Virus record (IMG/VR): IMGVR_UViG_2695420458_000022
Origin: a virus
Taxonomy: Duplodnaviria; Heunggongvirae; Uroviricota; Caudoviricetes
Strand: one strand, 5' to 3'
DNA length: 2,424 nucleotides
Position numbers and translations under genes: made by a program. Below, piece after piece: positions 1 through 582 of this stretch (positions are counted from its first letter, which is position 1; the number at the start of each line of letters is the position of its first letter). Under the pieces are notes generated by a model, which did no database searches, was not told the origin of the DNA, and was given only the letters and a program-made list of their open reading frames with translations.

Positions 1-192
1 ATGCACAAAGCATCTCCTGTTGAGTTAAGAACGAGTATCGAGATGGCACATAGCCTTGCTCAAATTGGAATCAGGTTTGTGCCAATACCAGTAGAAACAG
101 ACGAAGAATTTCATACGTTAGCCACATCCCTTTCACAAAAACTGGAAATGATGGTGGCGAAAGCAGAAGCAGATGAGAGAGACCAGGTATGA
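1..192 (+). CDS. Hypothetical small acidic phage protein (63 aa); may be complete or 5'-truncated at the window edge
   Basis: Open frame from position 1 (ATG) to TGA at 190-192. Same strand and tight spacing as downstream genes; its stop overlaps an ATG at 189-191. No family recognised by eye. The window starts exactly on this ATG, so upstream context is not visible. Confidence 0.5.
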   Translation: MHKASPVELRTSIEMAHSLAQIGIRFVPIPVETDEEFHTLATSLSQKLEMMVAKAEADERDQV

Positions 193-272
193 CAACCACT
201 GAATGCATTTTTCTGGCAGCGGGCTTCATATTCTGTGTGCTTATGCTTGCCGACATGGGGCTTGTTCAATGA
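189..272 (+). CDS. Putative 27-aa hydrophobic mini-protein (MTTTECIFLAAGFIFCVLMLADMGLVQ), single predicted transmembrane helix; not in the supplied ORF track
   Basis: ATG 189-191 overlaps the upstream stop TGA 190-192, and its own stop TGA 270-272 overlaps ATG 269-271 of the next gene (double ATGA coupling). Purine-rich GAGAGAGA/AGGT lies just upstream. About 20 consecutive hydrophobic residues. Competes with the alternative 203 start of the next gene. Confidence 0.3.
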   Translation: MTTTECIFLAAGFIFCVLMLADMGLVQ

Positions 273-484
273 CACCTCAGCAAGAAAACGCCCTTCGCAG
301 CATTGCCCGTCAGGCTAATTCTGAAATCAAAAAAGCCAGACAGCAGTTTCCGGATAAAAACGTCGATGACATTTGCCGTAGCGTACTGAAGAAGCACCGC
401 GAAACGGTAACGCTGATGGGATTCACACCGACTCATTTAAGCCTGGCGATCGGCATGTTAAACGGCGTCTTTAAGGAACGGTGA
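269..484 (+). CDS. Hypothetical phage protein, about 72 aa, predicted helical and basic (MTPQQENALRSIARQANSEIKKARQQ...). Alternative start ATG 203 would give the 93-aa form with a Cys/His-rich N-terminus (CAYACRHGAC)
   Basis: Open frame ending TGA 482-484. ATG 269 overlaps the stop of the mini-ORF in an ATGA arrangement. No strong Shine-Dalgarno before either 203 or 269, so start choice is uncertain. No family recognised by eye. Confidence 0.6.
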   Translation: MTPQQENALRSIARQANSEIKKARQQFPDKNVDDICRSVLKKHRETVTLMGFTPTHLSLAIGMLNGVFKER

Positions 485-506
485 GCATGAAAAACAAAAT
501 CATCAT

Positions 507-527
507 GGAGCTACAGGCTCCTTTTTT
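507..527 (+). terminator. Weak terminator-like or attenuator-like hairpin: GGAGC-tacag-GCTCC followed by TTTTTT
   Basis: 5-bp GC-rich stem (507-511 / 517-521), 5-nt loop, then a 6-T run (522-527) in the 98-bp gap between the stop at 484 and the start at 583. The stem is short, and the region is also covered by a possible 29-aa ORF (487-576). Confidence 0.3.
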
Positions 528-582
528 ATTATTCGCATTCACCCTCAAGCGTATTAACCAACAATTCAGGGATTAATGAAAG

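Follow-up and report, generated by a model that had tools for sequence, protein, structure and literature searches.

A candidate small hydrophobic protein gene in the probably coupled exo-xis operon of lambdoid phages, and a proposed re-annotation of orf61 in lambda and Shiga-toxin phages

Background

Lambda is the reference temperate phage, and the exo-xis block of its early-left pL operon is found also in the Shiga-toxin phages 933W, VT2-Sakai and Phi24B. The examined part of the exo-xis literature treats orf61, one of the genes of this block, as a long frame (PMC8614690, PMC6213356, PMC4195576). A frameshift in lambda orf61 delayed phage development after induction (PMC4195576), and delta-orf61 alleles are available that replace the entire annotated open reading frame (ORF) (PMC6213356). 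Here we consider a stretch of 2,424 nucleotides (nt) from the IMG/VR record IMGVR_UViG_2695420458_000022, below called the window, which comes from a lambdoid Escherichia coli prophage and covers the distal, exo-xis portion of its pL operon. It contains a candidate gene of 27 codons, here called the mini-ORF, between the homologues of orf63 and orf61. The analysis supports a small hydrophobic phage protein encoded in a probably coupled operon, together with a re-annotation of orf61 in lambda and Shiga-toxin phages.

The window aligns to the complement of lambda 31196-29091 (about 97% over the shared parts) and is matched by hundreds of lambda-like and Shiga-toxin phages. Among the complete genomes of E. 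coli, 4595 out of 5426 match the window, and the block is present in 58% (3142/5426).

The mini-ORF and its conservation

The mini-ORF occupies positions 189..272 on the plus strand. As described in a first-pass annotation of the window, it starts with ATG at 189-191, ends with TGA at 270-272 and has 27 codons; the product, MTTTECIFLAAGFIFCVLMLADMGLVQ, is predicted to form a single hydrophobic helix. The double ATGA overlap described there is also present. The stop codon of orf63 (TGA 190-192) overlaps the start codon of the mini-ORF in the ATGA at 189..192 (plus strand), a candidate termination-reinitiation junction, and this motif is retained in all 271 such junctions (271/271), be it behind orf63 or behind a Dam methylase gene. 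The stop codon of the mini-ORF overlaps the start codon of the orf61 core (ATG 269-271) in the ATGA at 269..272 (plus strand), which is replaced by GTGA in about 11% of loci. The proposed recurrence of this architecture was borne out, as four-nucleotide overlaps of start and stop codons occur in the same operon at 481 (GTGA), 801 (GTGA) and 1169 (ATGA). The 27-codon open frame by itself is unremarkable: the window contains 48 ORFs of at least 20 amino acids (aa).

To gather related loci, a stretch of 26 nt in the orf61 core (window 410-435) was used as an anchor. As this anchor is not part of the tested segment, the sampling favours neither the mini-ORF frame nor the overlapping frame opened by ATG203. 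The set consists of 120 IMG/VR stretches, 120 metagenome stretches and the loci collected earlier. The intact 27-codon ORF with its ATG, its TGA and the 5' ATGA was found in 270 of the 291 loci with enough upstream DNA, and the peptide is identical in 234 of these 270. The remaining loci include 16 that belong to another mosaic type without the mini-ORF, three disrupted loci, and one with Gln27 replaced by a stop codon, where a TAATG overlap is kept. Positions 189-191 and 270-272 are invariant in the loci carrying the homologous segment.

The substitution test was based on 30 distinct events in 192-268, with the expected synonymous fraction of 0.25. In the mini-ORF frame 15 of the 30 events are at third codon positions and 14 are synonymous (P=0.008; the ratio of nonsynonymous to synonymous rates, dN/dS, is ~0.38). 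Restriction to the events seen in at least two loci, which strips most of the sequencing noise, leaves 12 synonymous events out of 19 (P=5e-4, dN/dS ~0.19), and the latter test still yields ~P=0.003 after the six-frame correction. In the 203 frame, 8/30 events are synonymous, with dN/dS of ~0.9-1.1, and 15/30 fall in its first codon positions. In both plus-strand frames other than that of the mini-ORF, dN/dS is at least 0.9. Two neighbouring genes served as controls: the orf61 core (28/63 synonymous, 33/63 at third codon positions) and orf63 (15/47 synonymous), for whose protein a nuclear magnetic resonance structure has been published (PMC10869804). The synonymous signal of the mini-ORF equals that of the orf61 core and exceeds that of orf63. 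The amino acid changes in the peptide are mostly conservative hydrophobic swaps: F8L, I14V, F15L, A21S/V, V26I/A. Thus the comparative alignment, suggested in the first-pass annotation as a way to choose between the frames, places the synonymous-biased substitution in the 189-272 frame and not in the 203 frame. The comparative data are far beyond chance and point to purifying selection acting on the 189-272 frame. With the peptide sequence under selection, the mini-ORF is not just a spacer.

Most of the matches outside Escherichia in GTDB (Shewanella, Pseudomonas, Bacillus-like and others) apparently represent contaminating DNA of the lambda type and thus add no diversity. The loci concerned, L087-L100, are labelled Shewanella, Pseudomonas, Bradyrhizobium, Oceanobacillus, Kitasatospora and others. 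They have the lambda-type haplotype, and several are of about 48 kb, apparently being lambda contaminant DNA.

Properties of the candidate peptide

The best 19-residue Kyte-Doolittle window of the peptide, IFLAAGFIFCVLMLADMGL, has the score of 2.33 (threshold 1.6) despite one Asp. When the same bases are shuffled without creating stop codons, only 0.36% of the sequences reach this score, and by hydrophobicity the mini-ORF ranks second among the 67 open frames in the window. A hydrophobic segment of this kind is consistent with the earlier description of the peptide as essentially one transmembrane helix. The charged residues are Glu5 and Asp22; there are no Lys, Arg or His, and the net charge is -2. 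The peptide is hydrophobic over almost all of its length and has enough residues to span a membrane once as a helix, and its composition points to insertion of a single helix in the inner membrane.

The peptide has no significant match in Pfam, PHROGs or NCBIfam; the best ones, to the PHROG 'membrane protein' (E=0.68) and to MtrF (E=0.034), are both at the chance level. The 90% cluster of the peptide has 428-aa members, whose sequences are unlike the peptide, and they were dismissed.

Several sequences (P0113, P0116, P0120, P0122, P0124, P0132) are in-frame fusions of orf63 and the mini-ORF, 89 aa in length, created by small indels in the GAGAGAGACCAGGT run before ATG189. Were they real, Orf63 would be tethered to a hydrophobic helix. 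However, they come mostly from raw-read assemblies and are probable indel errors or rare variants, and as evidence they were set aside.

Mosaic variants

In 38 loci of the conservation tally, a Dam methylase gene (PF05869) is in the place of orf63. The homology to the window begins exactly at A189, the ATGA is kept, and GGGAGG is located 4 nt 5' of the ATG of the mini-ORF. In the 16 loci without the mini-ORF (L111 type), an unrelated 250-aa gene precedes GAGG and a spacer, after which an ATG opens MTIEHNNALRS..., with neither the mini-ORF nor the N-terminal extension of the annotated long Orf61. The core in these loci begins at the equivalent of the Met encoded at 269, that is, at Met23 of the long form. 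The mini-ORF is thus bounded by a mosaic joint at each end, in the way that a separate gene would be. The 250-aa gene itself (at about 9800-10570 in L111, and in the 15 similar loci) has no match in Pfam.

More diverged homologues of orf63 directly adjoin Ea22-like or TraR-like genes. The orf61 core was found behind every copy of the mini-ORF with enough downstream DNA, and none of the 317 loci has the mini-ORF without the core. Thus the mini-ORF and orf61 move as one block, which is separable from orf63. Two candidate alternative in-frame starts, P0003 'MRCSVDAY...' and P0086 'MPGAVQTATEC...', are scars of IS66 and IS3 insertions and hence are uninformative.

Proposed mechanism

We suggest that 189-272 is a genuine small protein gene of the exo-xis/pL operon, and assign a probability of roughly 0.78 to the joint reading that includes a coupled relay, a membrane peptide and a pro-lytic contribution. 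Ribosomes that end orf63 (or the Dam gene) at TGA190 would reinitiate at the overlapping ATG189, read 27 codons, terminate at TGA270 and start again from the ATG or GTG at 269, yielding the 71-aa Orf61 core. In this way orf63, the mini-ORF and the core would form a translationally coupled relay. Soon after infection or induction, the peptide would be inserted in the inner membrane and, if other micro-proteins are a guide, may act by binding a membrane protein, contributing to the pro-lytic phenotypes that are now credited to 'orf61'.

The candidate ribosome-binding sites are of unequal strength. A weak Shine-Dalgarno (SD)-like GAGAGAG at 175..181 (plus strand) is located ~6-7 nt 5' of ATG189, with anti-SD pairing of -5.6 kcal/mol and good spacing. 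In the Dam-type mosaic, the strong GGGAGG is found here (-10.3 kcal/mol). The pairing upstream of ATG203 is -3.9 kcal/mol and ends 13 nt away, and that upstream of ATG269 is -4.0 to -4.7 kcal/mol.

A number of observations weigh against the proposed gene. The divergence is low, with peptide identity of at least 92.6% everywhere, and thus the substitution test has just 30 events to draw on, which are not wholly independent of each other. The third codon positions of the mini-ORF coincide with those of the antisense ORF 71..256. No homologues beyond E. coli lambdoid phages were found by exact cluster look-up or by tblastn against phages, all matches having at least 92.6% identity. The SD box in the orf63 context is weak, and thus expression of the mini-ORF would depend on coupling. 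A positively charged flank that would fix the topology was looked for in the peptide and is absent; by the positive-inside rule, a peptide free of basic residues is atypical for a membrane anchor. Three loci have no intact copy of the mini-ORF. L223 is rearranged, and L235, a metagenome contig with 1.3x coverage, has a frameshift. In L086 (Escherichia sp. E1V33), a 14-nt deletion relative to the window removes the first codons, leaving the mini-ORF frame without an ATG, and translation from the ATGA-coupled ATG would enter the long frame (MTISSGGLHILCAYACRHGACSMTHQPENALRS...). Thus the pattern named in the first-pass annotation as counter-evidence, a broken 189-272 frame with the 203 frame kept, does occur, yet in one genome and by one deletion. 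Finally, the lambda ribosome profiling (Liu et al. 2013), as summarised in PMC8614690, gives only a 7-aa and a 31-aa extra ORF in this block. Possibly, the 27-aa ORF is unlisted in that summary as the footprints on it were credited to orf61, whose annotation overlaps it.

In L086 (NZ_RHJI01000010.1, positions 1-1200), the place of orf63, directly 5' of the orf61 homologue, is taken by a gene for a 355-aa DndB-like protein (PF14072) with a DGQHR motif. Here the exo-xis block has acquired a gene of the DNA-modification or defence type.

One alternative, which we consider improbable, is that the mini-ORF is a relay and nothing more: it would carry ribosomes from orf63 to the weak ATG269, by coupling or by control of the upstream-ORF type, and the peptide would be a functionless by-product. 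The overlaps at both ends would fit such a role, as would the weak SD box before ATG269, given that the variant without the mini-ORF has its own GAGG, and the invariable presence of the core downstream. However, a relay needs just an open frame of the right length. The synonymous excess, the conservative character of the changes and the hydrophobicity beyond that set by base composition would be left unexplained. Besides, the core is frameshifted in lambda (see below), yet the mini-ORF peptide is unchanged there.

The start of orf61

The orf61 core is located at 269..484 on the plus strand and encodes a predicted helical bundle of 71 aa (MTPQQENALRS...KER; RefSeq WP_000188870.1, PHROG 303), in agreement with the substitution pattern. 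The first-pass annotation placed the start of this gene at 269, provided that the mini-ORF is real. This position is favoured by the RefSeq start, by the use of the same Met in the L111-type variant and by the AlphaFold confidence, which rises from about residue 23; the length given there, 72 aa, has to be corrected to 71 aa, as 269-484 includes the stop codon. The start codon is ATG in 244 loci and GTG in 30, and the substitution A269G is silent in the mini-ORF (CAA>CAG). In the AlphaFold (AF2) model of the 93-aa form, the predicted local distance difference test (pLDDT) is 41 and 56 for the first two ten-residue blocks and then 74-92 from about residue 23. The published AlphaFold and RoseTTAFold models disagree on residues 1-23 of Orf61 (PMC8614690).

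The N-terminal extension of the 93-aa 'Orf61', MHFSGSGLHILCAYACRHGACS, corresponds to 203..268 on the plus strand and most likely is not a functional coding frame. ATG203 does open a 93-aa ORF with C12-x3-C16-x-H18-x2-C21 in the N-terminus, as had been pointed out in support of the longer form. However, the candidate Cys and His ligands are not invariant across the homologues: there are H2Y (3 loci), H9Y (5), C16F (3), H18Y (11) and C21Y (1). The three His-to-Tyr changes are silent in the mini-ORF, whereas both Cys changes also alter it (A21S, V26I). The 22-residue Cys/His extension thus appears to be an annotation artefact. In the window haplotype, the long frame has an in-frame TGA at 200..202 (plus strand), and most relatives have GGA or AGA here (T200G in 124 loci, T200A in 9); both substitutions are synonymous (Thr4) in the mini-ORF. 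Lambda has GGA at 200, and hence the annotated lambda orf61 can start at ATG173.

It is quite unlikely, in our opinion, that the gene actually present is the long Orf61, starting at ATG203 (93 aa) or, in the lambda types, at ATG173, with a real Cys/His N-terminus and 189-272 an accidental open frame. The long form is annotated in 933W (L0070), phage Turner, lambda (orf61) and PHROG 303, and is used in the Phi24B literature (PMC8614690). Moreover, all homologous haplotypes translated in the long frame have it open from 203 on, and in L086 the coupled ATG enters it. On the other hand, the extension has the neutral-like dN/dS of ~0.9-1.1 given above, with half of the events (15/30) at its first codon positions, and its candidate ligands vary. 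Its upstream limit is unstable, being ATG173 in lambda, lost by ATG>ATC in another haplotype, and set by the TGA at 200 in the window. The best anti-SD pairing for ATG203 is weak and ends 13 nt from the start, the L111-type protein begins at Met23, and the N-terminus is modelled with low confidence or inconsistently. The start at 269 is taken in RefSeq and in the 2025 annotation of mEp332. In addition, overexpression of the orf60a and orf61 ORFs from plasmids gave insoluble aggregates (PMC6213356), and a wrong start of Orf61 may explain the failure to obtain soluble protein for structural work reported in the same paper.

The homopolymer at window 323-328 (about 823-829 in the lambda locus L001) is A7 in the lambda reference and A6 in the window and in 275 of 300 related loci. 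With this additional A, the 71-aa core of lambda is frameshifted, and thus lambda 'orf61' is a truncated, pseudogene-like form. The lambda-type frameshifted core is present in 19 of the 300 loci. The literature, as far as covered here, notes the truncation of lambda orf61 but not its cause at the A run.

Antisense frames and RNA structure

That nothing is encoded in 189-272, the third-position bias being due to the antisense ORF 71..256 (minus strand) or to small-sample chance, is hardly credible: this 61-aa ORF does share the third codon positions of the mini-ORF, 11/30 events are synonymous in it and the events are few in total, but the third-position excess is absent where it overlaps orf63 (14/47), the ORF ends early, at codon 45, in the Dam-type context and has lost its start (ATG to ATA) in 11 loci, the polymorphisms at 260 and 269 fall outside it, and the corrected non-singleton test speaks against chance. 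Both antisense ORFs considered, 71..256 and 111..275, were rejected. Nor is there a convincing minus-strand promoter, the single weak match at 557-528 being the number expected from shuffles. An RNA element in this region was also ruled out, as no Rfam family matches it and the fold z-score is +0.72; RNA structure thus does not account for the bias.

Published orf61 mutants

If 189-272 is a gene, the published orf61 mutants affect it as well. The frameshift allele of lambda 'orf61' is the deletion of C in CTTCATATTCTGTGTG[C]TTATGCTTGCCGACAT (PMC4195576, Table 1). The deleted base is C240 of the window (delta-C240), in codon 18 of the mini-ORF. As for the delta-orf61 alleles, in which all of the annotated ORF is replaced, they lack the mini-ORF too. 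The core of lambda orf61 is already frameshifted, which makes the peptide a serious candidate for the lambda phenotypes.

A stronger version of this suggestion is that the peptide, rather than Orf61, is the effector of the lambda 'orf61' phenotypes, that is, delayed development after induction (frameshift mutant) and increased numbers of lysogens and survivors (deletion mutants). The peptide would then be a membrane product biasing the lysis-lysogeny decision via an inner-membrane host factor, for example FtsH/HflKC, which controls CII. We regard this version as rather unlikely, and FtsH/HflKC as the target is a pure hypothesis. An analogy is provided by MgtR, a 30-aa peptide that steers an FtsH substrate.

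Annotation status and significance

The locus is annotated in three ways. The lambda reference record has a 61-aa 'orf61' (lambda 30839-31024, window 173-358), which is the 203 frame extended upstream and shortened by the A7 run. 933W and phage Turner have the 93-aa form. The RefSeq genomes of E. coli and the 2025 record of mEp332 have the 71-aa form from 269, leaving 193-268 empty. The peptide had been called hidden, and it is indeed absent from RefSeq, the four phage annotations inspected, PHROGs and the searchable lambda literature, in which its opening sequence was not found. On the other hand, exactly this peptide has an entry in public protein collections, where it is an unnamed 'hypothetical protein' (UniRef representative A0A0A2SGE8_ECOLX) with calls on ~981 contigs. 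Automatic pipelines have thus already deposited it, and the mini-ORF is not wholly new.

If the proposed gene is real, lambda and its relatives have one more conserved early gene, missing from RefSeq and the phage annotations mentioned above, and most phage annotations, PHROG 303 and the structural-modelling literature give 'Orf61' a wrong N-terminus. The pro-lytic phenotypes of the deletion and frameshift mutants would need to be reassigned, above all in lambda. The locus would also be a clean ATGA-ATGA relay, with a micro-gene bridging two genes, and a reminder that footprints or homology credited to an overlapping annotated frame can mask a small gene. The question is directly testable, as three single-base mutations can separate the frames.

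Other features of the window

All genes in the following list are on the plus strand. The window begins with the orf63 homologue (1..192; 63 aa), a DUF1382 protein (Pfam PF07131, E=3e-31) equivalent to lambda orf63 NP_040614. The orf61 homologue ends at 484 and is followed by a 31-aa ORF (481-576), the TraR/DksA-like orf73 (583-804), an Ea22-like gene (801-1172), a gene with a dATP/dGTP pyrophosphohydrolase domain (1169-1816), an Eag-like gene downstream of the latter and, last in the gene order, an excisionase/TorI-like gene (2224-2424). Most relatives align to the window only as far as about 2178-2192, and coverage of at least 80% is observed in only 31 genomes. Thus the excisionase/TorI-like gene is a mosaic partner different from the ea8.5-xis end of lambda. 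A terminator-like GC hairpin with a T-run is located at about 2156-2180. A weak match to the Rfam small RNA STnc130 at 2147-2274 on the minus strand (24 bits against the gathering score of 55, E=0.99) is most likely due to chance.

Comparison with known systems

The closest described genes are lambda orf61, vb_24B_7c of Phi24B and L0070 of 933W. The mini-ORF lies wholly inside their annotated coordinates (window 173-358 for lambda, 203-484 for the Phi24B type) and has the operon and the expression timing in common with them. The frame and the product are different: 'orf61' is split into a 27-aa peptide (189-272) and a 71-aa helical protein (269-484).

A second tiny ORF follows orf61 at 481..576 on the plus strand. 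It encodes 31 aa from GTG481, in a GTGA overlap with the stop codon of orf61, or, if translation starts at ATG487 with its strong SD box (-11 kcal/mol), 29 aa. The 29-aa form, with the hydrophobic centre APFLLFAFTL, is called on 999 contigs. This ORF probably is the 31-aa orf2313 detected by lambda ribosome profiling (Liu et al. 2013, cited in PMC8614690). Similar to the mini-ORF, orf2313 is tiny, was missed classically, has a hydrophobic stretch, and begins with a start codon that overlaps the stop codon before it (ATGA in lambda; in the window, GTGA at 481). In contrast to the mini-ORF, its translation has been reported experimentally, and there is no sequence similarity between its product and the 27-aa peptide. 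Within the 31-aa ORF, at 507-530 on the plus strand, there is an intrinsic-terminator-like hairpin GGAGCTACAGGCTCC followed by TTTTTTATTA, whose position matches the predicted terminator 't2' between orf61 and orf73 (PMC4195576). Translation of the tiny ORF through this hairpin could modulate termination.

Hok, Ibs and TisB, which are type I toxins, and superinfection-exclusion proteins form a class of small membrane-active proteins, the toxins usually being basic at one end. Like them, the mini-ORF product is a short hydrophobic peptide encoded by a mobile element. The first-pass annotation alludes to this class, stating that small membrane peptides of phage early operons are often host-toxic or exclusion factors; for the mini-ORF product such a role is speculative. 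Unlike the toxins, it has no basic residues, and its gene is situated in the middle of a polycistronic early operon and not in a separate cassette. A cis-antisense RNA antitoxin with its own promoter was not found, there being no Rfam match in 1-700 and one weak minus-strand promoter-like site, as many as expected from shuffles.

KdpF (29 aa), MgtR (30 aa) and AcrZ (49 aa) are small hydrophobic bacterial membrane proteins that bind larger membrane proteins. The candidate peptide differs from them in being encoded by a phage and in having no similarity to any family of Pfam, PHROGs or NCBIfam. It resembles all three in size, in the predicted single hydrophobic helix and in being encoded in an operon with tight translational linkage, and it resembles KdpF also in the near absence of charged residues.

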